A stretch of 64,000 bases of DNA, taken from a virus. Shown here in pieces: positions 20,290 through 43,836 of the stretch (the first letter of the stretch is position 1; every line of letters begins with the position of its first letter). The stretch is taken from positions 1-64,000 of IMG/VR virus record IMGVR_UViG_3300044712_000815; one strand, given 5' to 3'. The notes beneath the pieces are model-generated. The model did no database searches, was not told where the DNA came from, and saw only the letters and a list, made by a program, of their open reading frames with translations. A program made the translations under genes and the position numbers.

Positions 20290-20313
20290 GTTCATTGACA
20301 TATTGAATTTATA
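20290..20313 (+). promoter_or_regulatory. boxA-like antitermination site GTTCATTGACATATTGAATTTATA (repeated at ~21454)
   Basis: Identical 24-mer precedes two tRNA sub-clusters; related GTTCWTTG at 20167, 31974 and 43411. Confidence 0.55.
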
Positions 20314-20396
20314 TAGTAGTGGAGGAATTGGTTACCTCGCCTGATTTGGGATCAGGAGATCGAAAGTGTATGTGGGTTCGAGTCCCACCTATTATA
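20313..20396 (+). tRNA. tRNA-Pro(TGG), extended variable region
   Basis: CCTGA-TTTGGGA-TCAGG; GTGGG-TTCGAGT-CCCAC. Confidence 0.75.
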
Positions 20397-20455
20397 CAAA
20401 ATATAAAAAAGTTCGTTTTTATTTTTTAATATATAACTAAAATAGAAACGAACTT

Positions 20456-21331
20456 ATGAATAAAAATAAAAATTGTTGGAGAAAAATTGATACATATGCC
20501 AAAAAATTAAAGGCGATTATATTATTAGGTGGTAAATGTGAACATTGTGGTGAAACTAATTTTTTTAAATTAGAATTTCATCATTTAGAATCAGAAGAAA
20601 AAGAATATAATATATCACGAATTAGAAATTATAGATGGTCAATTATTGAATCAGAAATAAAAAAATGTAAATTATTATGTCGAAATTGTCATAATGAAGA
20701 ACACAATGGATATAAAGATAAAAGAAGATTTATTAATAAAAATACATTTTTAGATTTTAAAAAAACAATTAAATGTGAAAAATGTGAATATGATAAATAT
20801 ATTGGATCATTAGATTTTCATCATATTAATCCAAAAATTAAAGATTTAACATTAAGTCAACTTAGTTTAAAATATAACAACATTCAAGAATTGACTGAAA
20901 ATATTAAAATGGAATTAGATAAATGTGTGGTATTGTGTAAAAATTGTCATTCATTAGAACATTCAGATATTGAATTTTTCGAAAAATATAAAGATATAAT
21001 TATTGAAAAATCTAAAAATCTAAAAGAAGTTCAATCAAAAATTGATAGATATGAAGTAAAAAAATTGTATGATGGTGGAATGAAACAAATTGATATTGCT
21101 AAAAAATTAAATGCATCTAAAAGTACGATTAGTGATATAATTAAAATGTCAAAAGATATAATAAGTAAAGAAAAAAGAATAAATAAAGATGATGTTAAAA
21201 AATTGTATGAATGTGGAATGAAACAAATTGATATTGCTAAAAAATTAAATACCAATAGTAGTACAATTTGTGAAATTATAAAAAAATTAAAATTAAATGG
21301 TCTTGTAGTAGCGGAGTCTTCTAAACTCTAG
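20456..21331 (+). CDS. HNH homing endonuclease (two HNH modules + two HTH repeats) inside tRNA array
   Basis: CEHCG..LEFHH..LCRNCH and CEKC..LDFHH..LCKNCH; MKQIDIAKKLN x2; 3' end overlaps the next tRNA-like gene. Confidence 0.85.
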   Translation: MNKNKNCWRKIDTYAKKLKAIILLGGKCEHCGETNFFKLEFHHLESEEKEYNISRIRNYRWSIIESEIKKCKLLCRNCHNEEHNGYKDKRRFINKNTFLDFKKTIKCEKCEYDKYIGSLDFHHINPKIKDLTLSQLSLKYNNIQELTENIKMELDKCVVLCKNCHSLEHSDIEFFEKYKDIIIEKSKNLKEVQSKIDRYEVKKLYDGGMKQIDIAKKLNASKSTISDIIKMSKDIISKEKRINKDDVKKLYECGMKQIDIAKKLNTNSSTICEIIKKLKLNGLVVAESSKL

Positions 21332-21378
21332 TCGTATAATGGACACTGTAAATGTGGGTTCGAGTCCCACCTGGATCA
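21299..21378 (+). tRNA. D-armless tRNA-Arg(TCT)-like RNA
   Basis: GGTCTTG/CTGGATC acceptor, 7-nt connector, GGAGT-CTTCTAA-ACTCT, 24-nt variable region, GTGGG-TTCGAGT-CCCAC. Confidence 0.7.
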
Positions 21379-21476
21379 CAAAAATGAATGTTCACTTGTT
21401 CACGAAAAATAACCGTTCACGAAACGTGAACAAATGAATAAAATGAATAAAGAGTTCATTGACATATTGAATTTAT

Positions 21477-21549
21477 AGGGGATGGGACTGCTTGGTGTGG
21501 TCGCTGTACATACGGTACAGAGAGATGGCTTCGAAAACCATATCTTCTA
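21477..21549 (+). tRNA. Degenerate tRNA-like gene (TAC anticodon, A33, G3:U70 acceptor)
   Basis: AGGGGAT/ATCTTCT; GACT/GGTC D-stem; CTGTA-CATACGG-TACAG; imperfect T-stem. Confidence 0.5.
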
Positions 21550-21554
21550 CTATT

Positions 21555-21626
21555 GGGGGTTTAGTATAATGGCTATTACATCTGGTTTGCAACCACAAGA
21601 TACGAGTTCGATTCTCGTAACCTCCA
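21555..21626 (+). tRNA. tRNA-Ala(TGC)
   Basis: GGGGGTT/AACCTCC with G3:U70; one anticodon-stem mismatch. Confidence 0.8.
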
Positions 21627-21630
21627 CAAT

Positions 21631-21704
21631 GGGGCTGTAGTTCAGTTGGCTAGAACATCTGATTTGCATTCAGAAGATCGAGGGTTCGAGACCCTTCAGC
21701 TCCA
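21631..21704 (+). tRNA. tRNA-Ala(TGC)
   Basis: Canonical cloverleaf, G3:U70. Confidence 0.9.
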
Positions 21705-21709
21705 CAAAT

Positions 21710-21782
<73 letters not shown>

Positions 21783-21789
21783 CGGATAA

Positions 21790-21850
21790 AGAATATTAAC
21801 AGCAAATTAAAAACAATCAAATTTACATTTTGACTAAAAGAAATATTCTG
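21790..21850 (+). ncRNA. CAGCAA-scaffold RNA copy A, displaying a Val(TAC) anticodon stem-loop
   Basis: AGAATATT..CAGCAA..TCAAA-TTTACAT-TTTGA..AATATTCTG. Confidence 0.6.
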
Positions 21851-21868
21851 TTCTAAATTAAAATCTAA

Positions 21869-21938
21869 AGATTACATACAGCAAATTAAAAAAAGAAACA
21901 AACTTGTAAATTGTAAAATCTGAAAAAAATGTATTCTG
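21869..21938 (+). ncRNA. CAGCAA-scaffold RNA copy B, displaying a Thr(TGT) anticodon stem-loop
   Basis: AGATTACAT..CAGCAA..ACAAA-CTTGTAA-ATTGT..ATGTATTCTG. Confidence 0.6.
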
Positions 21939-21947
21939 TGGTTTTAT

Positions 21948-22019
21948 GCAGGTATAGCACAACGGTTAGTGTAAGAGATTTCCAATCTTTTGATGTGGGT
22001 TCGATTCCCACTACCTGCT
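21948..22019 (+). tRNA. tRNA-Gly(TCC)
   Basis: Canonical cloverleaf. Confidence 0.9.
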
Positions 22020-22084
22020 CAAACATAAGGCGTTGGTTTACGTGGTTAGTCTTTATCCATGTGCTTATGAAGAAAAAGACAAAT

Positions 22085-22170
22085 GCGAGTGTTGATCTAG
22101 TGGTCGATGACACCTGACTTCCAATCAGGTAAGCGAAAGCGCACCGTGGGTTCGAATCCCATCACTCGCT
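22085..22170 (+). tRNA. tRNA-Gly(TCC), long variable arm
   Basis: CCTGA-CTTCCAA-TCAGG; variable arm GC-GAAA-GC. Confidence 0.8.
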
Positions 22171-22214
22171 CGTGGGTTTAGACTTTTTAGACTTCGTATG
22201 GAAAAAAGTTAATT

Positions 22215-22287
22215 GCAAGATGAAGCTTAATTGGATGAAGTGCCTGATTACCAATCAGGAGAAGGGGTTCGACTCCCACATCTTGCT
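22215..22287 (+). tRNA. tRNA-Gly(ACC), weak T-stem
   Basis: GCAAGAT/ATCTTGC; CCTGA-TTACCAA-TCAGG. Confidence 0.65.
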
Positions 22288-22288
22288 C

Positions 22289-22362
22289 GTAAGTGTATAT
22301 CAATTGGTAGATAGTCACGTTGCCAACGTGAAGGTTTGCGGGTTCGAGTCCCGTTACTTACT
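22289..22362 (+). tRNA. tRNA-Gly(GCC)
   Basis: TCACG-TTGCCAA-CGTGA. Confidence 0.85.
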
Positions 22363-22368
22363 CAATAA

Positions 22369-22443
22369 GGGTGATTAGCTCAGTTGGTTCAGAGCGTTTG
22401 GTTTACACCCAAAGGGTCGGGGGTTCGACTCCCTCATCACCCA
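22369..22443 (+). tRNA. tRNA-Val(TAC)
   Basis: Canonical cloverleaf. Confidence 0.9.
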
Positions 22444-22449
22444 CCTTAT

Positions 22450-22535
22450 GTTCCCATAGTGTAATTGGATAAACATCTCACTCTTACAAAGTGAAGACGA
22501 GAAGTATAATACAGGTTCGAGTCCTGTTGGGAACA
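22450..22535 (+). tRNA. tRNA-Val(TAC), extended variable region
   Basis: TCACT-CTTACAA-AGTGA; 16-nt variable region. Confidence 0.8.
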
Positions 22536-22541
22536 CAATTT

Positions 22542-22629
22542 GCCGATGTCGCATAGTGGACTATTGCGCTTGCCTTGTAAGCAAGATACTGAAAGGTTTT
22601 AATCGGGGGTTCGAATCCCTCCATCGGCT
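22542..22629 (+). tRNA. tRNA-Thr(TGT), long variable arm
   Basis: CTTGC-CTTGTAA-GCAAG; ACT-GAAA-GGT arm. Confidence 0.8.
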
Positions 22630-22657
22630 CAACAATATATTATATATAAAGGAAAAA

Positions 22658-23275
22658 ATGAATATCGAAGAACAAAAGAATTTATGGAATAATCCAAATA
22701 ATTGGTCTAATGATGGTAATGAATGGTCAACATATTTTGGGACAACTGAAAATTTATGGAATATATTATATCCTAAATTTAAAAATTATATAATGGGTGA
22801 TGTATTGGAAATTGCACCAGGATTTGGCAGAATGACAGAATATTTATTAAGAAACACGAATGATTTAAGTATAATAGATTTGAATGATATATGTATCGAA
22901 AAATGTAAACAAAGATTTGATACTAGTATTAAGAATTATGTTGTTAATGATGGTAAAACATTGAATTTTAGTGATAATTATTTCGATTTTATTTTTTCAT
23001 ATGATTCGTTTGTGCATATGACAGAAGATGTTATAGAAAGTTACATATCGGAAATACACAGAACATTAAAAAATAATGGTTATGCTTTTATTCATCATTC
23101 ATTTTTTATGGGTGGTAGTGTTGATAAAGCAACGGAAAATATTGGGGGTAGATCAAATATGACACCAAGTCTTTTCAAAAATATAGTTGAAAAATATAAT
23201 ATGACAATTATATCACAAGAAGATTTTAGGGTTTCTGAACAAATAAATGATGCGATTTCAATTTTTAGAAAATAA
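22658..23275 (+). CDS. Class I SAM-dependent methyltransferase
   Basis: VLEIAPGFGR, FDFIFSYDSFVH, LKNNG; start moved to MNIEEQ because the track start lies inside a tRNA. Confidence 0.85.
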   Translation: MNIEEQKNLWNNPNNWSNDGNEWSTYFGTTENLWNILYPKFKNYIMGDVLEIAPGFGRMTEYLLRNTNDLSIIDLNDICIEKCKQRFDTSIKNYVVNDGKTLNFSDNYFDFIFSYDSFVHMTEDVIESYISEIHRTLKNNGYAFIHHSFFMGGSVDKATENIGGRSNMTPSLFKNIVEKYNMTIISQEDFRVSEQINDAISIFRK

Positions 23276-23279
23276 TTTT

Positions 23280-23352
23280 GCCGCAATAACTTTAATGGTA
23301 GAGTGCCACACTTGTAATGTGGAAGTTGGGGGTTCGAGTCCCTCTTGCGGCT
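23280..23352 (+). tRNA. tRNA-Thr(TGT)
   Basis: Canonical cloverleaf. Confidence 0.9.
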
Positions 23353-23356
23353 CTAA

Positions 23357-23429
23357 CGGGGTGTAATTCAGTTGGTAGAATGCGTGGTTTGGGTCCACGA
23401 TGCCGTCAGTTCGAGTCTGGCCACCCCGA
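23357..23429 (+). tRNA. tRNA-Pro(TGG)
   Basis: Canonical cloverleaf. Confidence 0.9.
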
Positions 23430-23448
23430 CAATTTTGGTTTTTAGATG

Positions 23449-24498
23449 TTAATTCAAATTATATTTTGCAAGTGTGACATCCCAAAGATCACTATTGATA
23501 AATTTTATAAGGTTTTTATTAATATTGTTTTCGATAGTTTTGTCACATTTCATACCGATACCATAATATTGTCGATCAAAAGTACTATTAGATAGGTGTA
23601 TTTTTTTAAGATTATTTTTCTTTATATAATATTTAAGAATTGGTGTATCATATACAAAAGTTTCCAAATTTTTACATTCTAAATCATTTAATGCTTCTTC
23701 GATACTATCATATCCAATGAATTTGATATTTTTTGAATTTAAATAATCCACTGCTGTGGTATTTAGAAATGATCCAACTTTTGTTTTATTTAATTGATTG
23801 ATATCTTCTAAGCCATTATCTAACCTATTTACAGTAATAGCAGATGAAATATTACCAATAAAAACTGAAGTGATTCCTAAAGAAATAAGCATCCATAAAA
23901 TTACTATAAGTTTACCTAGTTTAGTTTTTGCTGATTTATCACCAAATCCAACTGTGCTCATAACGACAGTGGCGAAGTAGAACGCATCATAAATACCAAT
24001 AGATACACTTTTATCAAAATCTGGATTATATTTATGTTCAACTAACCATATTAATATTCCAACTATAAAAATAATAAGTAATAAGGATAACACATATTTT
24101 AAAAAAGTAAGTGAAAAAATATTTGAAACTATTGACCAAAATGCAGATTTGGATAAATTTGAAGCTATACTAAGATCTGTTATATAAAAAGGTTGGGAAA
24201 AATTAATTTTATCCATTCGGGTATCACTAATTGTGATTGATCCAAGAATAATATCAAATTTATTTTTGCTAAGTTCATCAACCATTCCATTTATTGAACC
24301 ATCATAAATTTCATATACGTATTCGATATTTGATTCTTTGGCAATTCTTTCCCAAATATCAACGATAAGACCAGTATAGCTACCATTAACATCCATCATT
24401 ACGAATGGTGGCGAATCATACAATCCAACTTTAAGTGGTTCAGATTTTGTAGTTATTCCAATTAGAATAAGTGTGATAATTAGAATTAATTTTTTCAT
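23449..24498 (-). CDS. GluR0-like ligand-gated K+ channel (split solute-binding domain around a 2TM pore)
   Basis: Signal peptide, PPFVM..TGL..D, ITISDTR..FSQPFY, TM-STVGFGD-TM, then S2 lobe; start MKKLILII behind a TATATTTG promoter. Confidence 0.85.
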   Translation of the reverse strand: MKKLILIITLILIGITTKSEPLKVGLYDSPPFVMMDVNGSYTGLIVDIWERIAKESNIEYVYEIYDGSINGMVDELSKNKFDIILGSITISDTRMDKINFSQPFYITDLSIASNLSKSAFWSIVSNIFSLTFLKYVLSLLLIIFIVGILIWLVEHKYNPDFDKSVSIGIYDAFYFATVVMSTVGFGDKSAKTKLGKLIVILWMLISLGITSVFIGNISSAITVNRLDNGLEDINQLNKTKVGSFLNTTAVDYLNSKNIKFIGYDSIEEALNDLECKNLETFVYDTPILKYYIKKNNLKKIHLSNSTFDRQYYGIGMKCDKTIENNINKNLIKFINSDLWDVTLAKYNLN

Positions 24499-24571
24499 AT
24501 GTTTTTTTTTGTACAAATATAACAATTTTTTTGAAATAATTGGATAATATATAAAAAAAATTATTACATTT

Positions 24572-24645
24572 GCCGTCATAGCTTTAATTGGTAGAGTACC
24601 TGATTCGTAATCAGGATGTTGTGGGTTCGAGTCCCACTGACGGCT
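24572..24645 (+). tRNA. tRNA-Thr(CGT)
   Basis: Canonical cloverleaf. Confidence 0.9.
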
Positions 24646-24714
24646 CAATCAGATAGAATATTAGATTTGGTTATTTTTTGAAGTTCGAATATTTATATAT
24701 ACAAATAAAACTGT

Positions 24715-25587
24715 ATGTGTAAATGTAAAATATGTGGTAAAGAATGCAAAAATGTTAATGGAATAGCAAAACATCTAAACATACATAATATAGAATTATT
24801 AAAATATTATGTTAAATATGAAGATTTTGAAATACCAAAATGTATAATATGTGGAAAAGATGCAAAATTAAATAAAGGATTAAAATTTAGAAGAACTTGT
24901 AGTGATATATCTTGTGGTAACAAAACACATAAAATAATACATTCAACTGAAACAAAAATATTACTATCAGAAAAACGTAAAAAATATTTAAAATTAAATC
25001 CAGATAAACATCCTTGGAAACAAAAAGATAAACAATTATCTGTTCCATGTGAATTATTTAAAACAAAATTAAAAAATAATAATATCAATTATATTGAAGA
25101 ATATTCACCATTAGAAGATAGATTTTTTAGTATAGATATTGCGTTTCCTGATAAAAAAATAGGAATTGAAATTAATGGAAATCAACATTATGAAACAAAT
25201 GGAAAATTGAAAAAATATTATCAAGAAAGAAAAAATATAATAGAAAAAGGTGGTTGGAAATTGTATGATATTTATTATACTAAAGTTTATGATGATGATT
25301 TTTGTAATATCGTAATAAATAATTTAAAAAATAATAATTTAGGCTTAATAAATTATGAATTTATTAAATATACAAAAAATACAAATAAATGTGTAGATTG
25401 TAGTTGTGATATAAGTAATGGTGCTAAACGATGTAAAAAATGTAATATTTTAAATAGAATTAAAAATCGACCTAACATAGAACAATTAAAATTAGATATA
25501 ATAGAATTGGGATATTGTGGAACAGGAAGAAAATATAATGTTAGTGATAATGCGATAAGAAAATGGATAAATAGTCCCGTAGCTTAA
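24715..25587 (+). CDS. Putative homing endonuclease (zinc fingers, NUMOD3-like, PD-(D/E)xK/DUF559-like, HTH)
   Basis: IDIAFPDKKIGIEINGNQH; HSTETK..LS; 3' end overlaps tRNA-Arg. Confidence 0.75.
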   Translation: MCKCKICGKECKNVNGIAKHLNIHNIELLKYYVKYEDFEIPKCIICGKDAKLNKGLKFRRTCSDISCGNKTHKIIHSTETKILLSEKRKKYLKLNPDKHPWKQKDKQLSVPCELFKTKLKNNNINYIEEYSPLEDRFFSIDIAFPDKKIGIEINGNQHYETNGKLKKYYQERKNIIEKGGWKLYDIYYTKVYDDDFCNIVINNLKNNNLGLINYEFIKYTKNTNKCVDCSCDISNGAKRCKKCNILNRIKNRPNIEQLKLDIIELGYCGTGRKYNVSDNAIRKWINSPVA

Positions 25588-25645
25588 ACGGAAAAGCCAC
25601 AGATTTCTAATCTGTTGAGTATGAGTTCGAATCTCATCGGGATTA
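25573..25645 (+). tRNA. tRNA-Arg(TCT)
   Basis: Canonical cloverleaf ACAGA-TTTCTAA-TCTGT. Confidence 0.9.
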
Positions 25646-25648
25646 CTT

Positions 25649-25720
25649 GCGAGTGTAGCTCAGGGGTAGAGCATAACCTTGCCAAGGTTAGGGTCGTGGG
25701 TTCAATTCCCTTCACTCGCT
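25649..25720 (+). tRNA. tRNA-Gly(GCC)
   Basis: Canonical cloverleaf. Confidence 0.85.
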
Positions 25721-25965
25721 CAATGTGTAATTCATTAATTTGAATGTTGGAAAAAAGTAGTGGTACTGGATTCTTTTTTGGGTAAGGTAAAAGATGAAGT
25801 AATTATCATTAATAACTTACAAACACAATCGCAAGTGTTTTCGGTTAATATCCGACACATTTAAATCACATATGATCTAACTATAAAGAAACATAACTTA
25901 TGGACATTGTTAGGTTAATGGTTGCAGTAGATAAGAATAATTATGTTTCTTATGTGGTTTTATTT

Positions 25966-26585: not shown

Positions 26586-27041
26586 GTGAAAAATTATAAA
26601 ATGTTTGTTGAAAGTAATCGAGTTATAAAGGTATATCGTGGTGTTGGATCAATTATAAATGCAACATATGGTGGTATATCTGATGATGGTTTGGGTGTTT
26701 TTTGGACTGATAATTTAATTATGGCAAAATGGTTTGCTGGAATGGTTGAATATGATCCGGATAAGGGAAAATATGTTTCAATTAGAAATAGTGATGGTAA
26801 AATAATTGAATCAACTATACAATTTAATCATCCATATGTAATAGATTATTTTGATGAAGATGAAGATGAAGATTCTTTTCAAATATATATGAAAGAAATT
26901 GATGATATTGGTGGTGTTGAAAATTATAAAAATAAATTATTGAATGAAGGATATGATGGTATTGAATTAATTGGTAATACTACTAATTATTATAATAATG
27001 GAACATATAACATATACATTGAATTAAAAAATAATAATTAA
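26586..27041 (+). CDS. ADP-ribosyltransferase-like (ART-PolyVal type) protein, CTS-like N-terminus
   Basis: VYRG, GVFWTDN..AKWFA, GYDGI motifs. Confidence 0.55.
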   Translation: MKNYKMFVESNRVIKVYRGVGSIINATYGGISDDGLGVFWTDNLIMAKWFAGMVEYDPDKGKYVSIRNSDGKIIESTIQFNHPYVIDYFDEDEDEDSFQIYMKEIDDIGGVENYKNKLLNEGYDGIELIGNTTNYYNNGTYNIYIELKNNN

Positions 27042-27043
27042 AT

Positions 27044-27439
27044 ATGAAAAAAACGTTTAAATCATTTTTAAATGAAGAATCTGAAATAGATATGTATTAT
27101 CAATCTGATGATAAAATATGGAATGAATTTTTACAGCAATTGAAAATTTTAGCATTTCGATCAAATTATCAATTAGAAACGGAATTGGGATTTAATCCAA
27201 AAATAGTTATTGTATCAAAAACTATTGGTAGGGGATTTTGGTTTATTATATATCAATCTAGACAACATTTTTTAGAAGATATACCTTGGTTTTCTTCTAA
27301 TTTTTCAATAACAAATGTAAAGAGTTTTTTTGAATCTGAAATTAAACACATTAGTGGTATTAAGGGTAAAGATTTTACGATTGAAGAATTACTTCCGAAA
27401 TTTATTTTAACTAAGATGGATACAGAAAGAACATATTAA
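27044..27439 (+). CDS. Hypothetical protein, CTS-like N-terminus
   Basis: MKKTFKSFLNEE. Confidence 0.5.
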   Translation: MKKTFKSFLNEESEIDMYYQSDDKIWNEFLQQLKILAFRSNYQLETELGFNPKIVIVSKTIGRGFWFIIYQSRQHFLEDIPWFSSNFSITNVKSFFESEIKHISGIKGKDFTIEELLPKFILTKMDTERTY

Positions 27440-27441
27440 AA

Positions 27442-28152
27442 ATGATAAAAACATTTGAAAATTATAACGAATATTTGATGATTGAAAAATTGGAACTTCG
27501 ACCACTTTTTGATCAATTAAAAACATCTGTAAATAAAAAAATTGTAGCAACATTAATAGTTGGCAGTTTATTAGCAATTTTAAATCCTGTACAAGCTATA
27601 AATTATATTGAAAATAATTCAGAATTAAGTTCTAAAGATAAAAAAGAATTAGTAAAAGTTATTCCAAAATATAAAGACCCAACAGAAATGTTATTAAGTG
27701 CTGATGGATGGGATTTTATAAGAAAACATGAAAGATTCAGAGATCACGGATATAATTTGGGGGATGGTATGATTACTATTGGATTTGGTCATGCTGAACC
27801 ATATAAAACATCTAAATATAAATTAAATCAAAAAATTTCATTTGATGAAGCATATAGATTACATATACAAGATGTTAATATAGCAGCAGATGGGATAAAA
27901 CGAATGTTTGATGAATGGAAATCGAAAGGTATACATATTAAGATAACCCAAAATCAATATGATGTTTTGGTGGATATGGCATACCAAATGGGTGTTAGTT
28001 CATTAAGACAGACACCATTTATACAAGCTATAAAGCATTACGATTTACAAAAAGCAGCAAAATTATTGCGATCAACAGGGATTAACCCAAAATTTAAAAA
28101 AGGACACAATAAAAGAAGACAAATAGAATGGGAAAGATTTGTTTCTAATTAA
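27442..28152 (+). CDS. GH24 lysozyme-like protein
   Basis: FIRKHE..Y..GDG..TIGFGH, TQNQYDVLVD..YQMG, RRQIE. Confidence 0.85.
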   Translation: MIKTFENYNEYLMIEKLELRPLFDQLKTSVNKKIVATLIVGSLLAILNPVQAINYIENNSELSSKDKKELVKVIPKYKDPTEMLLSADGWDFIRKHERFRDHGYNLGDGMITIGFGHAEPYKTSKYKLNQKISFDEAYRLHIQDVNIAADGIKRMFDEWKSKGIHIKITQNQYDVLVDMAYQMGVSSLRQTPFIQAIKHYDLQKAAKLLRSTGINPKFKKGHNKRRQIEWERFVSN

Positions 28153-28201: not shown

Positions 28202-29722
28202 ATGAAAAAATTAAAAACATATGAAAATTTTTCAGAAGAATACAGATTGAACGAAAGTTTATTATCTATGGCATTGAATAAGATAGTAGAATTTTTTAAG
28301 AAAAAATTTTTAAATCACGCATGGTTATATTATAATCTTTTTTTGAAAAAAATAGGTAAAATGCCTAAATGGTTTGATATTTATGATCCATCACATGAAG
28401 ATGGTGTAGGTGTTCCATCAAAAGAAGAAGTCAAGTTAGCAATTAGTGAATCATATACAATTAATGGGTTTACTATTGAAAATATAAATGAAGATGTTGT
28501 GCAATTAAAATCTGATACTGAAGAAAATATTGATGCAGCAACTTTGAAACAAACAATATTGGATGTATATAATAAAAATAAAAGAAGGGTTGAAAAAGGT
28601 AAAGAAAGAAAAATGAATGATGCATTATTTATTTGGGGTGCTCCAGGTATAGGGAAAACATCAATAATTAAACAAGTTGTAAAAGAATTAGATATAAAAT
28701 TGGCAACTTGGCATCTAGCATCAACTGACCCAACTGATGTTAGGGGTATACCAACAATTCAAAATATGGAAGGAAGTAGTGACCCAAAAGATGAAAGAAC
28801 TGTAACTAAATTACCTGCTGCATTTCCAACATCAAATTGTGACAATGGAAAGGGTGGTATTTTGTTTTTTGATGAATTAAACCAAGCAAAACAAATGATT
28901 TTAGCAGCAGCACTTCCAATTATATTGGAAGGTGAAATTGGTGAATATGTTTTACCATCAATGTGGATAGTTATTGCTGCAGGAAATAGAGAAGAAGACT
29001 TAGCAGGTGGAGGTACAAGATTTGAAGCACCATTATCAAATAGGTTTAAGCATTTAAATTATGCACCTGAATTATTAACCGACTTTATTCCTTATGCTAT
29101 AACTAACGATGAAATGAATCCAGATGTTATTAGCTTTTTAACATTTAAACAAGAATATTTTCATAAATTAAATACCGATTCGGATAAAGTTACTAAAGCT
29201 TGGCCTAGTCCACGTAGTTGGGAATTAGCATCAAGCGATGAATATTTTAAAAGAGGTGATGATTGGGATAGTCGTCCATTATCTAGAGATACAATGATGC
29301 AAATTTATGCACCAAGAGTTGGTAGAGAAGCGGCAACAGCATTTTTAGCATATTTAGATTTAAAAGAATTTTTCAATGAAAATGATGTTAAAGATGTATT
29401 TACTAAAGGTGGCAAAGCTAGACCATTACCTAAAGATTTAGCACAATGTTTTGCTGCATCTGGGTCTATTGCAGGTTACAAAAAAGGTGAAAAATTAACA
29501 GAAAAAGAATTACAGAACTTTTTAGATTATACCGAAGTTCAAATGAATTCAGGAAATAAAGGATTGGAAACTGCAACACCATTGCTTGCTTGGATGAAAA
29601 CTATGCATCCAGATATTGCAGCCGATAATAAACTTAAAGAGATGTATATGGAATTTATAAAAAAATGGCATATTAAAATGGAAGATCTTGAAGATGTTGA
29701 TCCATTAAATAAAATTAAATAA
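28202..29722 (+). CDS. MoxR-like AAA+ ATPase
   Basis: WGAPGIGKT, ILFFDELN, AAGNR, LSNRF, SPRSW. Confidence 0.9.
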   Translation: MKKLKTYENFSEEYRLNESLLSMALNKIVEFFKKKFLNHAWLYYNLFLKKIGKMPKWFDIYDPSHEDGVGVPSKEEVKLAISESYTINGFTIENINEDVVQLKSDTEENIDAATLKQTILDVYNKNKRRVEKGKERKMNDALFIWGAPGIGKTSIIKQVVKELDIKLATWHLASTDPTDVRGIPTIQNMEGSSDPKDERTVTKLPAAFPTSNCDNGKGGILFFDELNQAKQMILAAALPIILEGEIGEYVLPSMWIVIAAGNREEDLAGGGTRFEAPLSNRFKHLNYAPELLTDFIPYAITNDEMNPDVISFLTFKQEYFHKLNTDSDKVTKAWPSPRSWELASSDEYFKRGDDWDSRPLSRDTMMQIYAPRVGREAATAFLAYLDLKEFFNENDVKDVFTKGGKARPLPKDLAQCFAASGSIAGYKKGEKLTEKELQNFLDYTEVQMNSGNKGLETATPLLAWMKTMHPDIAADNKLKEMYMEFIKKWHIKMEDLEDVDPLNKIK

Positions 29723-31117
29723 ATGATAAAAAAATATAATAATTTTATAAACGAATCTGCAAAAGATATAAGTGCTGAAAAAAAAATGAAAAGGGCATTT
29801 ATGCAGATCCAATTAAATTTTGGATTTTTTGCAGAATTGATGTTTAATTTAGCTATAGTAGAATCTAGTCCAAAGATGGGGGTTAAAACTATGGCAACCG
29901 ATGGTGTTAATATTGCATATAATCCCGAATTTGTTAATAAACTAACTGATAATGGAACAATATTTATAATAATACACGAAATTATGCATAATGCAAATTT
30001 ACACTTTGCTAGACAAGCTTTCAGGGAACATAAATTGTGGAATAAAGCATGTGATTATGCTATAAATCTTTTAATTGCGGATTTAGCTAAAGAATCTGGT
30101 AAATTCGAAAAACCAACTGAAAACGGTGAATTTATAGGATTGTTGGATGAAAGATTTCGTAATATGAATGCTGAACAAATATATGATTTACTTGAAAAAG
30201 AAAAATTAGAAAATAAAGATAAAGGTAAAGGTCAACCTAGTAAAGGTCAAGGTAAAGGTCAACCAGGTGATGGTAATGAAGGTGATGAAGATGAAGGTGA
30301 TGAAGATGAAGGTGATGGTAGTGTAGGTGATTTTGGTGAAGATATTAGAGAACCAGGATCATTAACAGGAAAAGGTGAAACTATATATGAAGGTAGTGAT
30401 ATTATAAAAGAAGCAACCACCAAAAAAGAATTAGCAGATATTTGGGATAGAATTAAAATTGAAGCTTCAACAAAAAATATGGGATCGGGTTCAGCATCTT
30501 TTGATAGATGGGTTAGAAATATAAATAAACCAAAAATAAATTGGAGAAATGAATTAAAAAAATTTATTACAAATGTATTTAATGAATTAGATTTTGGTTT
30601 TTATAATAAAAGGTTTATTGGTGGTGGTCAATATTTGCCAGCTGCTAAAGATATAGACACATCATCATATCAAAATGTTGTTATAGCAATTGACACATCG
30701 GGTTCTATATCAGATGATACTTTAGCTAAATTTGCAACAGAAATGATGTCGCTTTTTAAAAAGTATTTAATTTTAAAGGTTATTGTTATTTGGTGTGATG
30801 CTAATATTCCAAAAAATGGCGTACAACAATTTGATATGGCAGATAAAACATTTGATTTAAAGAAACTTAAACCTGTTGGTGGTGGTGGAACAAGTTTCAA
30901 GCCACCATTTGAATGGATCAAGAAAAATCTACTTGCAAAACGTATAGAACCAGCATTTGTAATATATTTTACTGATGCTGCTGGGGAAGCACCTGGAATT
31001 AATGAATTTGATATTAGAAAATATTCAAATAGGGTTCTTTGGGTAATTACTGATACAGAAAGCGCACCACATATCAAATTTGGTAAAAAAATATATATTG
31101 ATAAAATAGTTAAATAA
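29723..31117 (+). CDS. DUF2201 metallopeptidase + vWA domain protein
   Basis: TMATDG, HEIMH, WN.ACDYAIN, acidic linker, IDTSGS MIDAS, GGGGTSF, YFTD. Confidence 0.9.
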   Translation: MIKKYNNFINESAKDISAEKKMKRAFMQIQLNFGFFAELMFNLAIVESSPKMGVKTMATDGVNIAYNPEFVNKLTDNGTIFIIIHEIMHNANLHFARQAFREHKLWNKACDYAINLLIADLAKESGKFEKPTENGEFIGLLDERFRNMNAEQIYDLLEKEKLENKDKGKGQPSKGQGKGQPGDGNEGDEDEGDEDEGDGSVGDFGEDIREPGSLTGKGETIYEGSDIIKEATTKKELADIWDRIKIEASTKNMGSGSASFDRWVRNINKPKINWRNELKKFITNVFNELDFGFYNKRFIGGGQYLPAAKDIDTSSYQNVVIAIDTSGSISDDTLAKFATEMMSLFKKYLILKVIVIWCDANIPKNGVQQFDMADKTFDLKKLKPVGGGGTSFKPPFEWIKKNLLAKRIEPAFVIYFTDAAGEAPGINEFDIRKYSNRVLWVITDTESAPHIKFGKKIYIDKIVK

Positions 31118-31824
31118 TGATATATTTGCAGACTTTTGAAAATTATAATTATTATAATGATGATATGATTATGGAAAAATTTAATCTAAAATATCATTTA
31201 GATAAATTAAAAAAGTCAACAAATAAAAATAAACTAGCAACATTAATTGTTGCTAGTTTGTTGTCAATATATACCGCTAATCAAGCATTAAATTTTATTC
31301 AGCGATCTAATATTAATGAACCAGAAAAGATAATATTAATTGATACAATTAATAAAGTTGAAGATAAGTATAAAGACCCATTAATATTAAATATAAGTCA
31401 AAATGGTATACAACATTTGAAAAAATTTGAAGATATAAAATTAGAAAAATATTATTTGGATGGTGTGGCTTTGGTAGGTTATGGACATAAAATATTACCA
31501 AATGAAAAATATACAACAATTACCCCCGAAATAGCAGAAAAATTATTAATCGTAGATGCTACTTATGCATCTGATGGTGTCAAACGATTATTCAAATTGT
31601 GGAAAAGTATGGGAATTGATATTAAAGTTACTCAAAATCAATTTGATGTAATGGTTTCATTAGCATATAGTATGGGGGTTGGTGCTTTTAGAGGATCAGA
31701 TTTTGTACAAGCATTAAAACAAAAAGATTTTGTAAAGGCATCACAATTATTGAAATATACTGGAATAAGTCATCCTGGTCATATAAAAAGAAGATCAGTA
31801 GAATGTAATATTTTTAAATTATAA
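31117..31824 (+). CDS. GH24 lysozyme-like protein (paralog of 27442..28152)
   Basis: ISQNGIQHLKKFE, VGYGH, TQNQFDVMVS, RRSVE. Confidence 0.8.
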   Translation: MIYLQTFENYNYYNDDMIMEKFNLKYHLDKLKKSTNKNKLATLIVASLLSIYTANQALNFIQRSNINEPEKIILIDTINKVEDKYKDPLILNISQNGIQHLKKFEDIKLEKYYLDGVALVGYGHKILPNEKYTTITPEIAEKLLIVDATYASDGVKRLFKLWKSMGIDIKVTQNQFDVMVSLAYSMGVGAFRGSDFVQALKQKDFVKASQLLKYTGISHPGHIKRRSVECNIFKL

Positions 31825-31997
31825 AAAATTATTAAACTTTTTTTTTAATTTATACTACAAATATTATTCTTTAAAAAATGGAAAAAAATGACATTTTTTA
31901 AAGAATATATAAAAATTGAAAAATATTAAATTTTTTTACAGTAATTGGTAATTAAAATTTAATATTTGTCAAACGTTCATTGAAGAAAAAATTATAA

Positions 31998-32046
31998 AGA
32001 ATACATTCAGCAACATAAAAGTTCGAGAAACAAAAATCGTATTCTG
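31998..32046 (+). ncRNA. CAGCAA-scaffold RNA copy C
   Basis: AGAATAC-ATT-CAGCAA...GTATTCTG. Confidence 0.6.
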
Positions 32047-32070
32047 TTAATTTAAAATATTTACTCATAA

Positions 32071-32274
32071 AGAATACATACTGCAAATCATAAACTAAAT
32101 ATGATAAACAGTGACTATGATGATGGTAGTGTTTTGAAACTTTTTTAGTTTTTCACTAAGTTACATCATCAATTAAAACCTATCCCAAGGGGATATGGAG
32201 AAGGTCTTAACTAAACAAAAAAATTAAAAAGAAAGTTTACCGTTCGGTTTTTGAGAAAAACCGATTGTATTCTG
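32071..32274 (+). ncRNA. CAGCAA-scaffold RNA copy D with ~180-nt multi-hairpin insert
   Basis: AGAATACA-TA-CTGCAA...TGTATTCTG; internal GATGATG/CATCATC, TATCCC/GGGATA and TCGGTTTT/AAAACCGA stems. Confidence 0.55.
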
Positions 32275-32293
32275 TTGAGGATTTTGATTTTTA

Positions 32294-32363
32294 GCTTAGA
32301 TTAGGATGTTGGCTTGGAAGCAGCCATTCATTTAAAGAGTACGTAACAGTTCACTAGTCAAGC
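32294..32363 (+). ncRNA. Stand-alone mimic of 23S rRNA helices 43-44 (uL11-binding / GTPase-associated centre)
   Basis: AGGATGTTGGCTTGGAAGCAGCCATTCATTTAAAGAGTACGTAACAGTTCACTAG matches the recalled 23S 1051-1108 consensus; closed by GCTT-A-GATTAG/CTAGTC-AAGC. Confidence 0.85.
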
Positions 32364-32404
32364 AACAATTATTAGTTTTGATTATTCATACTAATAGTTA
32401 AGTT

Positions 32405-32450
32405 AAATCCCAACTATTTATGTAAAAATTATAGTTGGGATTTTTTTTTT
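32405..32450 (+). terminator. Intrinsic terminator between ncRNA cluster and DUF2828 gene
   Basis: AAATCCCAACTAT/ATAGTTGGGATTT plus T run. Confidence 0.8.
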
Positions 32451-32460
32451 ATTAATTCCT

Positions 32461-32494
32461 AGATTACTAACAGCAAAAATAAAAATGTAATCTG
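32461..32494 (+). ncRNA. CAGCAA-scaffold copy E (minimal) in 5' UTR of DUF2828 gene
   Basis: AGATTAC-TAA-CAGCAA-N10-GTAATCTG. Confidence 0.6.
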
Positions 32495-32515
32495 GACAAA
32501 AAATTAGGAGGTATT

Positions 32516-33910
32516 ATGAACTCAAATGCAAAATTAGTTAATGTAACTAGACAAAAAGACAGTTATACCAAAAATGGTATGGTAACAAATTCAACTTCGT
32601 TGAATTCAAATGTGGATATGTTTTTCTTAGCGGGTGCTTCGAGAAATATCTCAGAAAAAGATATTGAATTTCTTTTTCAAAAATCAATAGTGGAAAACCC
32701 TTTAGTGGCACTAAAACTTATGTTTTGGGCAAGAGACCCAAGAGGTGGTGCGGGTGAAAGAAGATTTTTCAGGATTTGTTCTAAATTCTTGAATAAGAAC
32801 TATTTATCATATCTTGAAAAAAATATCAATTTAATACCTGAATATGGTCGTTGGGATGATATATTTGAACTTGATAGTGATGTTATATTACCATTAATCA
32901 AAGATGGTTTAGATAAAGAAAATGGTTTGCTTGCAAAATGGTTACCACGTCAAGGAGAATTTGCGAATAAAGTTCGTAAATTTATGAAACTTAGTCCAAA
33001 GGATTATCGTAAACTTATTGTTGGTTTGTCAAATACAATCGAACAAAAAATGTGTGCAAAAGAATGGGATGCGATCACATATAAATCAGTGCCATCATGC
33101 GCACTGAATAAATATAGAAAGGCATTCTATAAAAATGATGCAAATCGTTTTACAGAATATATTTCATTGGTTAATGAAGGTAAAGAAGAAATTAAAGCAG
33201 GTGTTTTATTTCCACATCAATTATATCAAGCATATAAAAAAGGTGAAGATAAAAATGCTGTAGAAGCACAATGGAAAAATTTACCAGATTTTATGGTTGA
33301 TTCAGAAGAAAGAATTATACCAGTATGTGATGTGTCAGGTTCTATGACTAGTAATAATGGTCTTCCAATGTCAGTATCAGTGTCATTGGGTTTATATATT
33401 TCAGAAAGAAATAGAAGTATATTTAAAGATGCATTTATAACATTTTCAGCATCACCAAAAATGCAATATTTAAAAGGTTCTTTTTATGAAAGAATAAGAC
33501 AATTGGAAACTGCTGAATGGGGTATGAATACTAATTTGGAAGCTGTATATAGTTTAATATTAACTAAAGCTATTCAAAATAGATTAACCGAAGATGATAT
33601 GCCAACAAAAATTCTTATAATTTCGGATATGGAATTTGATAGTTGCGCTCAAAATAATTCAGATTCTGCATTTTCGATGATAAATAGAATGTATTCTGAT
33701 GCTGGCTATAAAATGCCACAGATCGTTTTTTGGAATGTAAATGGTAGATTGGGTAATGTTCCAACAAATGCACAAACAAAAAATGTTGGTTTGGTTTCAG
33801 GATTCAGTCCAGCAATATTGAAATCAATATTACAAGGTAGTATTGATACACCAGAAAGCTTAATGTTGCGAACAATAAATAGTGAAAGGTACGAACCTAT
33901 TACAATATAA
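32516..33910 (+). CDS. DUF2828 family protein (TROVE/Ro60-like helical domain + vWA)
   Basis: TKNG, ARDPRGGAGER, PEYGRWDD, AKWLPR, DVSGSM, ISDMEFD, VFWNV, VSGFSP. Confidence 0.85.
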   Translation: MNSNAKLVNVTRQKDSYTKNGMVTNSTSLNSNVDMFFLAGASRNISEKDIEFLFQKSIVENPLVALKLMFWARDPRGGAGERRFFRICSKFLNKNYLSYLEKNINLIPEYGRWDDIFELDSDVILPLIKDGLDKENGLLAKWLPRQGEFANKVRKFMKLSPKDYRKLIVGLSNTIEQKMCAKEWDAITYKSVPSCALNKYRKAFYKNDANRFTEYISLVNEGKEEIKAGVLFPHQLYQAYKKGEDKNAVEAQWKNLPDFMVDSEERIIPVCDVSGSMTSNNGLPMSVSVSLGLYISERNRSIFKDAFITFSASPKMQYLKGSFYERIRQLETAEWGMNTNLEAVYSLILTKAIQNRLTEDDMPTKILIISDMEFDSCAQNNSDSAFSMINRMYSDAGYKMPQIVFWNVNGRLGNVPTNAQTKNVGLVSGFSPAILKSILQGSIDTPESLMLRTINSERYEPITI

Positions 33911-34060: not shown

Positions 34061-35080
34061 ATGGCAGTTAAAATTTTTTCAACTTCAAAATCAAAATATT
34101 TGGGTCAACATATTGCTAAGTCATACGGGGTTGACATAAGTAGTAGTGAGTTTAAAATCTTTTCGGATGGTGAATTTTGTCCACGTTTAGATGAAAGTGT
34201 TAGGGGTGATAAGGTGTTTATAGTAGCATCCCTATATTCATCTTATCATGAAGCTGAAGAAGTGATAAGAATGATACCAGAAGAAAAACAAAAAGAAGCG
34301 AAAGCGATATTAAAAACACTTATTTCTTCATCATCTACTGTATTTGAATTACTACAAATGATTGATGCCGCAAAAAGGGCATCAGCGAAAGATATAGTTG
34401 CTGTTATTCCATATTTTGGTTGGGCTAGACAAGATCGTAAAGACAAACCACGTGTACCAATTACTGCTAAGTTGTTAGCAAATATGATAACTGATGCTGG
34501 TGCAACCCGGCTAATTACTATGGACCTTCATGCTGATCAAATACAAGGTTTTTTTGATATTCCTGTTGATGCATTAAAAAGTTCTTATGTATTTGTTCCA
34601 TATATTCAATCATTGAATCTTAAAAACTTGGTTATTGGATCACCTGATGAAGGTGGTGGAAAAAGGGCAAAAAAATATGCTGAACGACTTGATACAAGAT
34701 TCATTTTGATGAATAAAGAAAGAAAAGAAGCAAATATTATCAAAGAAATGGAACTTATCGGTGATGTGAATGGATGCGATGTTGTTTTTATTGATGATAT
34801 TATTGATACTGCGGGGACGATAACCACTGCTGCTGATATATTGATGGATAAAAAAGGTGCAAAAAGTGTTAGGGCTTGTATTGCACATCCTGTCTTATCT
34901 GGTCCTGCTTATGAACGTATTGAAAAATCAAAAATTACCGAAATTATAGTTACTGATACTATCCCACTAAATTCTTATATCAAATCGGATAAAATACGAG
35001 TATTATCTATTGCTGATTTATTTTCACGTGCAATTATGCGAATGAATACAAATGAATCAATATCTAATCTATATGAATAA
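34061..35080 (+). CDS. prs: Ribose-phosphate pyrophosphokinase
   Basis: FSDGE, PYFGWARQDRK, DLHADQIQGFF, DDIIDTAGT. Confidence 0.95.
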   Translation: MAVKIFSTSKSKYLGQHIAKSYGVDISSSEFKIFSDGEFCPRLDESVRGDKVFIVASLYSSYHEAEEVIRMIPEEKQKEAKAILKTLISSSSTVFELLQMIDAAKRASAKDIVAVIPYFGWARQDRKDKPRVPITAKLLANMITDAGATRLITMDLHADQIQGFFDIPVDALKSSYVFVPYIQSLNLKNLVIGSPDEGGGKRAKKYAERLDTRFILMNKERKEANIIKEMELIGDVNGCDVVFIDDIIDTAGTITTAADILMDKKGAKSVRACIAHPVLSGPAYERIEKSKITEIIVTDTIPLNSYIKSDKIRVLSIADLFSRAIMRMNTNESISNLYE

Positions 35081-36661: not shown

Positions 36662-37996
36662 ATGAAAAATAAAGTTATATGTGAAGTTTGTGGAAAAGAA
36701 GAAATGGTTTTTCCGTGTAGATCAAAAAACTATAAAACTTGTTCAAAAAAGTGTCTTGGTGAATACAATAAAGGAAAACTAAATTCTGTTTGTTGTGTAT
36801 GTGAAAAAGAATTTCACATTAAACCATATAGGACAAATAGAATAACAAATAAATTTGGAATAACGTGTTCTAAAAAATGTTCAAATAAATTAAAAGAAAA
36901 AATGTATATGGGAAGAGAAAATCCAAATACTAAGTATAAAAACTTAGATGATGACTTCTTTAAAGAAGTAAAAACTGAAGATAAAGCATATTTATTGGGA
37001 TGGATCGCTAGTGATGGCTCAATTAATCATAATAGTATACAAATCGCTATTAACAAAAAAGATTTATTATGTTTAGAAATATTGAGGGATATAATATGCA
37101 TAGATTTACCAATTAGTAATAAATCTACTGATTTAAAAATGTTAACTATATCATCAACAACCATTTCAAATGATGTGTGTAAATTATTAAATATTTTACC
37201 CGAAAAAAAATCAGATATCGTTTGTTTTCCAGATTTAGAAAATGATGATTTAAAATGGGCTTTTTTAAGGGGTTTTTTTGATGGTGATGGATCAATTCAT
37301 AATATAACAGAAACACATTATACACCGAGTTGTACTATAACATCCACATCTATAAATATGCGTAATTCTATTATGGAATTTTGTAAAATTCCTTGTAATG
37401 AATATGGTATAAATTTAAGTTGGTGTGGAAACAACGCATTGGATTTTTTAAATAAAATATATAAAAATTCTAAATTTAGGTTGGCTAGAAAATATGAATT
37501 ATATTTAGATATTTCAACATGGGTTCCATCTGTTTCGTATAGTAGATATTATAAGAATGAACATTGTAAATGGGCAAAAACAAGAAAAGATGCTGTTTCA
37601 CCATCTAAAGAAAGGGCATCGGATTCAGGATATGATTTAGTTCTTTTGGAAAAAATAAAAACTGTTGGAAAAGTTGAATTTTATGATACTGGAATAAAAG
37701 TTAAACCAAATTTTGGTTATTATTTTCAAATTGTGCCAAGAAGTTCAATTAGTAAAACTGGATATATGCTTGCAAATTCAGTAGGAATAATAGATAGAAC
37801 ATATTTAGGTAATATTATTGTTGCACTAATCAAAATTGATGAAACTGCACCAGATTTAGTTTTACCATTACGAATGGTACAAATGATTCCAACACCTATT
37901 GTACATTTTGAACTTGAAGAAGTAGAAAGTTTTGATGTAAACGAAACTGAACGTGGTGAAGGTGGATTTGGATCAACCAATAAAAAAGAAAAATAA
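36662..37996 (+). CDS. dut: Zinc-finger/LAGLIDADG endonuclease fused to trimeric dUTPase
   Basis: YLLGWIASDG and FLRGFFDGDG motifs; dUTPase motifs SGYDL, PRSS, GIIDRTYLG, Q, RGEGGFGST. Confidence 0.85.
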   Translation: MKNKVICEVCGKEEMVFPCRSKNYKTCSKKCLGEYNKGKLNSVCCVCEKEFHIKPYRTNRITNKFGITCSKKCSNKLKEKMYMGRENPNTKYKNLDDDFFKEVKTEDKAYLLGWIASDGSINHNSIQIAINKKDLLCLEILRDIICIDLPISNKSTDLKMLTISSTTISNDVCKLLNILPEKKSDIVCFPDLENDDLKWAFLRGFFDGDGSIHNITETHYTPSCTITSTSINMRNSIMEFCKIPCNEYGINLSWCGNNALDFLNKIYKNSKFRLARKYELYLDISTWVPSVSYSRYYKNEHCKWAKTRKDAVSPSKERASDSGYDLVLLEKIKTVGKVEFYDTGIKVKPNFGYYFQIVPRSSISKTGYMLANSVGIIDRTYLGNIIVALIKIDETAPDLVLPLRMVQMIPTPIVHFELEEVESFDVNETERGEGGFGSTNKKEK

Positions 37997-43417: not shown

Positions 43418-43779
43418 GGGGATGACTGGTTTAGACAGTTTTGTGAAATATGGTTATCAGCAGGTATCGCATCATCTAATAAGCGATTAATAAATTATGG
43501 GTAAAAACAATAAATGGCAAAGCACATACGCATATCGCTACTTCAAGATCAACTTATGCAGTTACTAGAACTGCAGTTGAAGCCGAAGTTTCTGTAGCCT
43601 AATCAGAAAATCTAGAAATCTTTTAGTAAACTATTTTGGGATCGCCAAAAATGTTTAGTGGATTTAATATTTACCATCAAAAAAATTATTTATTTTGTTT
43701 CAATTAGAAAATTGAAAATAAACCTGTAGAAGATGCTAAAAGACATTATTGGACCCGAGTTCGAATCTCGGCATCTCCA
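43418..43779 (+). ncRNA. ssrA: tmRNA with 28-codon tag (43516..43602)
   Basis: GGGGATG/CATCTCC-A acceptor with G3:U70, GAC..CCGAG-TTCGAAT-CTCGG T-arm, TAAAT before resume codon GGC. Confidence 0.9.
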
Positions 43780-43836
43780 CTAACTTAGCCATAAAAGCAT
43801 AAAAAGCATAATTAATTATATTATGCTTTTTTAGTT

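Follow-up and report, generated by a model that had tools for sequence, protein, structure and literature searches.

The window analyzed here is a 64,000-nucleotide (nt) stretch, positions 1 to 64,000, of the IMG/VR virus record IMGVR_UViG_3300044712_000815, the genome of an AT-rich giant phage. At 32294–32363 on the plus strand, it contains an isolated copy of helices 43 and 44 (H43 and H44) of 23S ribosomal RNA (rRNA). Together with the top of helix 42 (H42), these helices form the GTPase-associated centre (GAC), the 58-nt domain that binds uL11 and thiostrepton. Alignment and covariation show that a very large phage RNA family is built on the GAC fold and that the predicted RNA of the window represents its insert-free form. 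The family RNA would imitate the GAC off the ribosome, and its most likely partner is host uL11. For the window copy, the preferred reading is a stable, trans-acting imitation of the GAC which binds host uL11. It is held tentatively, and its chance of being correct is put a little below even.

The copy sits where the sequence-only reading, made from the letters of the window, had placed it. When 31900–32600 was searched with all 4227 models of Rfam 15 using Infernal, the sole significant match was LSU_rRNA_bacteria (RF02541). The alignment covers 32300–32361 (+) and the model positions 1092–1152 of 2925, which correspond to H43, H44 and five closing pairs. The match reaches 51.3 bits, just over the gathering score of 50, with an E-value of 2.4e-14, and the predicted pairs are all standard. 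The Infernal run agrees with the expectation that a match to the rRNA model would be confined to H43–H44. The element is not a full-length 23S rRNA of six domains and ~2.9 kb, as only the model positions 1092–1152 are represented. Rfam 15 families other than LSU rRNA gave nothing relevant at the locus up to an E-value of 10. As the sequence-only reading had stated, there is no further rRNA nearby, neither in the window nor in the entire virus record, a 159,264-base IMG/VR contig estimated to be 22% complete. The 64-kb window contains a single GAC-like copy. The element is also the GC-richer island that was described, with a G+C content of 0.39–0.41 versus 0.22–0.32 for the window. Other loci and contigs are given here as L numbers. 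L350, a close relative with 80–84% nucleotide identity, was assembled independently and has the same element with the same junctions, and the window element is therefore not an assembly chimera. A chimera with host rDNA is ruled out by this agreement at the junctions and by the lack of other rRNA in the record.

Compared with the 23S GAC (E. coli 1051–1108), the secondary structure, the loop sequences and the junction are alike, and the family shows the same covariation of position 1072 with the pair 1092:1099. The window copy differs in being free-standing and phage-encoded, and its closing helix has a non-rRNA sequence. This closing helix, proposed from the letters together with its bulged A, was recovered by RNAfold (Table 1), and the z-score over 32280–32450 is −5.2. 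Its outer pairs are changed in sequence yet complementary in L350 and in the bacterial contig L321. The 9-nt “1067 loop” of H43 corresponds to 32314–32322, and the equivalent of A1067 (32316) is G. An extra U (32328) follows position 1078. In H44, the reported A-C/G-U in place of the G-C/G-C of rRNA is a true compensatory double change at the pair 1091:1100, which is A:U in the window and G:C in 83 of 85 unique family copies. The window retains G1071 with this A:U pair, and its C1072 goes with C1092:G1099. Among the rRNAs compared, the closest match is Staphylococcus 23S rRNA (90%). The terminator noticed 3' of the element is a 13-bp hairpin at 32405–32443 followed by ten U. A scan for consensus terminators misses it because the hairpin loop is long.

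Isolated copies, for which the sequence-only reading had proposed a search, are widespread in phage genomes, and they covary. Two samples were collected by pattern. A 20-nt degenerate H43 pattern searched against IMG/VR matched at least 119 viral contigs. Only 24–55 nt of each aligned to complete 23S rRNA with blastn, and every one of these copies is therefore isolated. A family-specific H44 pattern, distinct from real rRNA, matched at least 120 viral contigs, 85 of which are new relative to the H43-pattern set. In all, more than 200 viral contigs carry the isolated domain. The H44 pattern was also found in 69 contigs of bacterial genomes or metagenome-assembled genomes (MAGs), in a set with one genome each from 185,579 prokaryote species. 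Most of them are MAG contigs, from Bacillota, Bacteroidota, Pseudomonadota, Chloroflexota, Nitrospirota, Actinomycetota, Patescibacteria and others. Carriers include cultured jumbo and T4-like phages: Yersinia phage fHe-Yen9-04, Cronobacter phage GAP32, Pectobacterium phage CBB, Serratia phage BF, several Erwinia phages, Xanthomonas phages XacN1 and XbC2, Pseudomonas phages pf16, Milchi, Astolliot and UNO-G1W1, and Aeromonas phage 4_4572. The locus is unannotated in most cultured-phage records, and is covered by a “hypothetical protein” in Milchi and Kaldavass. About 20 family loci searched against Rfam 15 yielded only tRNAs and weak LSU matches. Separately, Paenibacillus phage Pd_22F (L003; MZ092003.1, 82190–85116) contains unannotated full 23S and 5S rRNA genes in a “complete phage genome”; these are likely host DNA or an assembly with a prophage flank.

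The family has a characteristic architecture. In nearly all copies, a second conserved block, UUU-GGCGUAAYAGCACAC, is seen 57–381 nt 3' of H43 and corresponds to H44. Next comes a strand that can pair with the bases immediately 5' of H43. The order is thus the 5' closing strand, H43, the junction (U/C/A)UAA(A/G/U)GAGU, an insert, UUU-G, H44, and the 3' closing strand. The insert is closed by a helix, variable, 44–370 nt long, and located between U1090 and G1091 in nearly all copies. The insert, the UUU-G linker and A1101 are present in 84 of the 85 unique members, and the window copy is the only one without an insert. The copies of the Yersinia and Aeromonas phages are not short elements of ~85 nt, as their H44 lies 184–234 nt downstream. 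No common motif is shared by the inserts, which fall into 63 clusters with the top 7-mer in 8. About 223 nt into the L041 insert there is a hairpin with a sarcin-ricin-loop motif (AGUA, GNRA loop, GAA), seen in this one of 85 inserts. A second insertion site follows position 1078, on the 3' strand of H43, where L047, L060, L073, L089, L095, L108, L110 and L118 have an extra hairpin. A tRNA gene is found within 1 kb at 124 of 204 viral loci, on the same strand every time, and expression like a stable RNA from this co-oriented tRNA neighbourhood seems probable. There is no regular protein neighbour; the best cluster of open reading frames (ORFs) is seen at 8 of 121 loci. No phage uL11 gene was found in 51 carrier records (that of the window and 50 others).

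The suggestion that the fold is under selection, rather than captured by chance, is strongly supported by this widespread family with its covarying helices and tertiary triple. Among the 85 unique copies, the pair 1058:1080 is U:A in 32, G:C in 20 and A:U in 15, and the pair 1082:1086 is U:A in 29, C:G in 29 and A:U in 8. The first six pairs of the closing helix are 82–96% paired and use all four Watson-Crick types. At the buried triple 1072/(1092:1099), 79 copies have C/(C:G), the other 6 have U/(U:A), and there is not a single exception (Fisher p = 2e-9). With 28 diverse members aligned by MAFFT, pairing is seen in 89.1% of the cells, compared with 64.4% in shuffles and 33–50% with slid partners. 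Changes on both sides are seen at 19 of 24 pairs, the covariation score is 0.635 versus 0.174 and was matched by none of 500 shuffles, the triple is intact in 28 of 28 members, and the helix closing the insert covaries too. Conn, Gutell and Draper reportedly described the same triple for the rRNA domain in 1998. The covariation of 1072 with 1092:1099 indicates, therefore, that the family RNAs adopt the compact tertiary fold of the GAC. Exposed positions are looser. Position 1067 is A in 22, G in 3 and U in 1 of the copies sampled without H43 selection, and positions 1096 and 1097 are variable in the family. To our knowledge, A1067 is near-universal in bacterial rRNA. These comparisons show that selection acts on the predicted secondary structure and the buried tertiary contacts of the family.

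The window copy shares the core of the insert-bearing RNAs. The covariance model R1 was built from 28 insert-bearing members, with the window excluded. With filters off, it recognizes the window copy at 55.1 bits (E-value 4e-16 over 64 kb) with no other match; in a multi-source search, default filters miss this copy and filters off recover it. R1 gives 60.5 bits to the real 23S GAC. Because the real GAC scores equally well, R1 shows a common core, not descent. Unlike the insert-bearing RNAs, the window copy has no insert, no UUU-G linker and no A1101; its position 1101 is U, as in rRNA. It also lies in a Ro60 operon, described below, and not in a tRNA array.

Insert-free copies beyond the 85 are found in L350, L321, L034 (a 321-kb phage) and L371 (a 35-kb phage). 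Based on the alignment, these four and the window have in common a derived extra pyrimidine after position 1078, which real 23S rRNA does not have. The position has a single extra U in insert-free copies and a hairpin in some other members. L321 contains a 51-nt core identical to that of the window, while its closing helix is different in sequence and still complementary. The copy has its own TTGACA-17-TAATAT promoter and intrinsic terminator, which indicates that the bare domain can stand as an independent gene. On one side of the copy is tsaD, and on the other a mobile island that encodes an ABC exporter, Rep, a serine recombinase, tRNA-Glu and a patatin. The flanking ABC exporter (L321:2269–4671, +) is of the bacteriocin-export type. 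The mimic is also flanked by L321:1179–1706 (−), which encodes a small class-I methyltransferase with a weak match to “protein-lysine N-methyltransferase” (46.6 bits, cut-off 200). The copy at L371:1752–1822 is 70 nt long and near-identical to Bacillota-type 23S rRNA 1045–1112, part of H42 included, with one compensated pair. It has the appearance of a recently captured copy of the domain. It is located ~25 nt 5' of an ORF for a membrane protein.

The A:U pair at 1091:1100 bears on the origin of the window copy. All 60 metagenomic rRNA-type sequences with A1091:U1100 (among L295–L370) have A1071. This co-occurrence means that the second GAC base triple covaries in real rRNAs. The window and L321 retain G1071 despite A1091:U1100, and the base combination of the window is absent from all real rRNAs in the metagenome scan. 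Since the rRNAs with A:U all have A1071, the A:U pair of the window was not inherited from such an rRNA, and recent copying from an rRNA which already had the pair is unsupported.

The surroundings of the window copy are a putative non-coding RNA (ncRNA) operon read towards a protein gene (Table 1). The operon consists of two small-RNA scaffolds, a hypervariable slot and the terminator; in the window and some relatives, the leader of the gene contains a third one. The slot contains the GAC mimic in the window and L350, and unrelated hairpins in L124–L126, which are the three closest relatives as judged by the Ro60-like gene, with proteins 75–79% identical in amino acids. The mimic can thus be considered as exchangeable cargo of the Ro60 operon in this lineage, because the slot differs between close relatives. 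The terminator is kept in L124–L126 and L350, whether the mimic is present or not. In L124 and L126, it directly adjoins the ribosome-binding site of the Ro60-like gene, and the gene is therefore probably expressed by read-through.

The downstream gene, which starts 152 nt from the mimic, was called a DUF2828 gene in the sequence-only reading. The AlphaFold2 model of its protein (32516–33910) has a predicted local distance difference test score (pLDDT) of 84 and a predicted template modelling score (pTM) of 0.82. Each of the top 13 Foldseek matches in the PDB is a TROVE/Ro60 protein, among them Thermus phage phiLo Ro60 (9l5y), Deinococcus Rsr (2nvo) and vertebrate Ro60 bound to misfolded RNA. 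A sequence search against PDB sequences gave no match. Based on the modelled fold, the gene is a phage Ro60 homologue.

Table 1. Features of the GAC-like element and its operon in the window (E. coli 23S rRNA numbers for H43, the junction and H44).
Feature	Position	Strand	Basis
Whole GAC-mimic domain, ~E. coli 23S 1045–1113 (closing helix, H43, junction, H44)	32294–32363	+	LSU model, R1 model, minimum-free-energy fold
Closing helix P1, 5' strand (H42-top equivalent), A32298 bulged, pairs with 32354–32363	32294–32304	+	Letters and fold
H43 hairpin (1057–1081)	32306–32331	+	Letters and LSU model
Junction 1082–1090 (UUAAAGAGU), with U1082:A1086 pair	32332–32340	+	LSU model
H44 (1091–1103): A-C / GUAACA loop / G-U, then UCA	32341–32353	+	Letters and LSU model
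Closing helix P1, 3' strand	32354–32363	+	Letters and fold
Two small-RNA scaffolds upstream in the operon (~31998–32046, ~32071–32274), ends conserved, middles variable	31998–32274	+	Alignment with relatives; weak Rfam look-alikes
Extra hairpin between mimic and terminator; missing from L350	32367–32400	+	Fold and alignment
Terminator-like 13-bp hairpin and ten U, ends the ncRNA operon	32405–32453	+	Letters and fold
Third scaffold, within the 5' leader of the Ro60-like gene; also in L125 and L350	32461–32494	+	Rfam look-alike and alignment
Ro60-like protein gene (TROVE and vWA; Pfam DUF2828 and DUF7788; phrog_850 “RNA-binding protein”)	32516–33910	+	Pfam, PHROGs, fold

The window copy is not located in a tRNA array, as the nearest tRNA gene ends at 25721, 6.5 kb from the mimic. 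The window has tRNA genes at 20313–25721 (15 by ARAGORN, 16 by Rfam), a phage tmRNA at 43418–43782 (80 bits) and a ribose-phosphate pyrophosphokinase gene at 34061–35080. A MoxR-type AAA ATPase (28202–29722) and a DUF2201 metallopeptidase/vWA protein (29723–31117) lie between two paralogous phage-lysozyme genes (27442–28152 and 31117–31824). The N-terminal half of the dUTPase gene (36662–37996) contains a segment resembling a LAGLIDADG endonuclease, perhaps an intein or a homing endonuclease fused to the dUTPase. Pfam gave no support for an ADP-ribosyltransferase near the locus in the ORFs 26586–27041 and 27044–27439.

The uL11 reading can be laid out as follows. The RNA from 32294–32363 would fold like the GAC, with H43–H44 and a closing helix. 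At an abundance like that of tRNAs, it would sequester the free and exchangeable uL11 of the host. The capture would alter RelA activation, RF1-dependent termination and the stimulation of factor GTPases during infection. In the phage of the window, the mimic gene would occupy the variable slot of an ncRNA operon whose transcription continues into the Ro60-like gene. uL11 alone binds the folded 58-nt domain. It belongs to the ribosomal proteins that can exchange, and without it RelA is not activated and RF1-dependent termination is changed. Since the hosts of the carriers span many phyla and the carriers themselves supply no partner, the partner should be a universal host component that reads the fold. 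A1067 is exposed and is needed for thiostrepton and factor contacts, and its relaxation in the family points to recognition of the fold, away from factor or thiopeptide contact. Among the functions offered by the sequence-only reading, titration of uL11 agrees best with the evidence, since the buried fold is kept and A1067 is relaxed.

Several facts weigh against this reading. In L350, the closest relative with the element, one nucleotide is deleted from the H43 loop, by either decay or a sequencing error. The combination of G1071 with A:U in the window may weaken one tertiary triple. The uL11 inside assembled ribosomes may be inaccessible, and titration may be too weak to matter. A simple uL11 sponge does not explain the insert that is near-universal elsewhere in the family. 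The mimic is dispensable in this lineage, because L124–L126 have an unrelated sequence in the slot. Finally, the H43 and H44 samples were collected by pattern, and the invariance at pattern-fixed positions is uninformative.

Alternatively, the RNA might be a decoy for an attacker of the GAC, either a toxin (ADP-ribosyltransferase, nuclease or methyltransferase) or a thiopeptide, and spare the ribosomes that the phage needs. This is unlikely, although it deserves to be considered. Phage tRNAs replace or outcompete the targets of anti-phage nucleases, and the family RNA sits among phage tRNA genes. The L321 copy is at the edge of a mobile island (ABC-type exporter, Rep, serine recombinase, patatin). 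A toxin with exactly such a target exists: Tre23 ADP-ribosylates H44 of 23S rRNA at 1095–1098 within the fragment 1043–1123 (PMC8661411). A decoy facing a catalytic enzyme, however, would require very tight binding or high abundance, and carriers across many phyla would require an equally universal attacker. The exposed positions 1067, 1096 and 1097, the likely contacts of toxins or drugs, are the least conserved. Moreover, Tre23 is an interbacterial weapon, and we know of no anti-phage system aimed at the GAC.

The setting of the window copy suggests another function, as a working part of a system like that of Ro60 and Y RNA. The mimic might serve as bait, bringing uL11 or factors that bind the GAC to the Ro60 ring, or else act as a regulator or model substrate of Ro60. 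The downstream gene has the Ro60 fold, the mimic shares the operon with three Y-RNA-like scaffolds, and the terminator of relatives adjoins the ribosome-binding site of the gene, implying read-through from the ncRNA promoter. Nevertheless, the mimic is outside the scaffold stems, and the 8.5-kb L321 contig has no Ro60 gene. A Ro60-like protein is encoded in 8 of 50 carrier records, and in 2 of the 18 with a completeness of 90% or more. At 17 loci with homologues of the Ro60-like gene, no GAC-like element is found within 3 kb. Based on these counts, an obligate partnership with the Ro60-like gene was rejected as a general rule, and a Ro60-dependent function of the mimic is rather doubtful.

It is improbable that the free GAC captures translation factors directly, such as EF-G, IF2, RF3 and the BipA/LepA type, or the stringent factor RelA. 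Munishkin and Wool are said to have found in 1997 that the isolated thiostrepton domain binds EF-G in vitro, and the L041 insert with its sarcin-ricin-like hairpin would imitate both halves of the factor site. Such a hairpin is rare (1 of 85), though, and the affinity of the factors for naked GAC RNA is low. A1067, a main factor contact, is unconserved, and the window has G.

A cis-acting leader that senses uL11 and attenuates the Ro60-like gene is very hard to reconcile with the data. The mimic, the terminator and the gene are in order on one strand, insert-free copies lie ~25–30 nt 5' of an ORF in L034 and L371, and an alternative pairing of 7 nt, 32391–32397 with 32416–32422, can be drawn. 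But the middle hairpin required for this pairing is missing in L350, and relatives that lack the mimic have the same terminator and gene leader, the terminator belonging to the ncRNA operon. Most family members are located among tRNA genes, not in leaders, and the regulated gene is not a ribosomal protein gene. An inert captured rRNA fragment or an assembly artefact, with which the near relatives lacking the element and the deletion in the key loop of L350 would agree, is hardly credible in view of the same junctions in an independent assembly, the 51-nt core identical in the unrelated bacterial contig L321 with a compensated closing helix, the base combination unseen in real rRNAs of the metagenome scan and the strong covariation across the family.

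The autoregulatory leaders of ribosomal proteins (for example L1, L10(L12)4, S8, S15 and L20) share the principle of the uL11 reading, an off-ribosome copy of the binding site of a ribosomal protein. They are cis-acting, belong to cellular ribosomal protein operons and are usually partial copies of the site. In contrast, the window mimic and its family are phage-borne, represent the complete domain, have no adjoining ribosomal protein gene and are mostly found among tRNA genes. The mimic is not a leader of its own protein, as the gene downstream is Ro60-like, not uL11. Rfam 15 contains no uL11-binding leader.

The Y RNAs of Ro60/Rsr are similar in lying beside a Ro60 homologue, in being small and structured with ends that pair, and in imitating an RNA of translation. 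YrlA, a bacterial and phage Y RNA, has a tRNA-like module (Chen et al. 2014, PMC4201824). The window mimic copies rRNA, not tRNA, and its family is mostly without Ro60. Its closing helix does not contain the motif common to the three neighbouring scaffolds, as a Ro60-binding stem would, and neither Y_RNA nor YrlA of Rfam matched at the locus. 6S RNA, tmRNA, viral tRNA-like structures and the phage tRNAs that bypass anticodon nucleases are also alike, each being a stable RNA that mimics a conserved nucleic-acid surface of the cell. The difference from these other RNA decoys is that the object copied by the mimic is a protein-binding domain of rRNA. The mimic would thus act in the manner of ribosomal protein leaders and of RNA decoys, yet it belongs to neither group.

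No published description of a phage GAC-like RNA was found in a full-text literature search, and there is no Rfam family. A phage-encoded uL11 protein has been reported, without an RNA mimic (PMC13157829). The GAC-like RNAs form a real class of phage RNA, apparently undescribed, and the window contains the simplest form in an unusual Ro60 setting. It can be speculated that phages of many phyla share a free-standing GAC replica which removes uL11 or another factor that reads the GAC from the ribosomes of the host, and thereby resets stringent control, termination or defence signalling in infected cells. The bare replica of the window phage would then be one of several exchangeable baits in a Ro60/Y-RNA operon. 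This wider picture is possible, although it is to be doubted sooner than relied upon.

If the uL11 reading is true, it would add a new kind of phage gene, a replica of a protein-binding domain of rRNA acting in trans, and an rRNA mimic would join the known mimics of the tRNA type. It would also give a function to a conserved unannotated RNA of jumbo phages (the group of GAP32, CBB and fHe-Yen9-04, and XacN1 and pf16). Experiments could then directly address how uL11-dependent steps in translation and the stringent response are tuned by phages, or how phages escape toxins directed at the ribosome. The family is a natural experiment on the GAC fold, with its variable nucleotides and two sites tolerating large insertions, and the window copy, a bare 70-nt domain, is the simplest object for testing.

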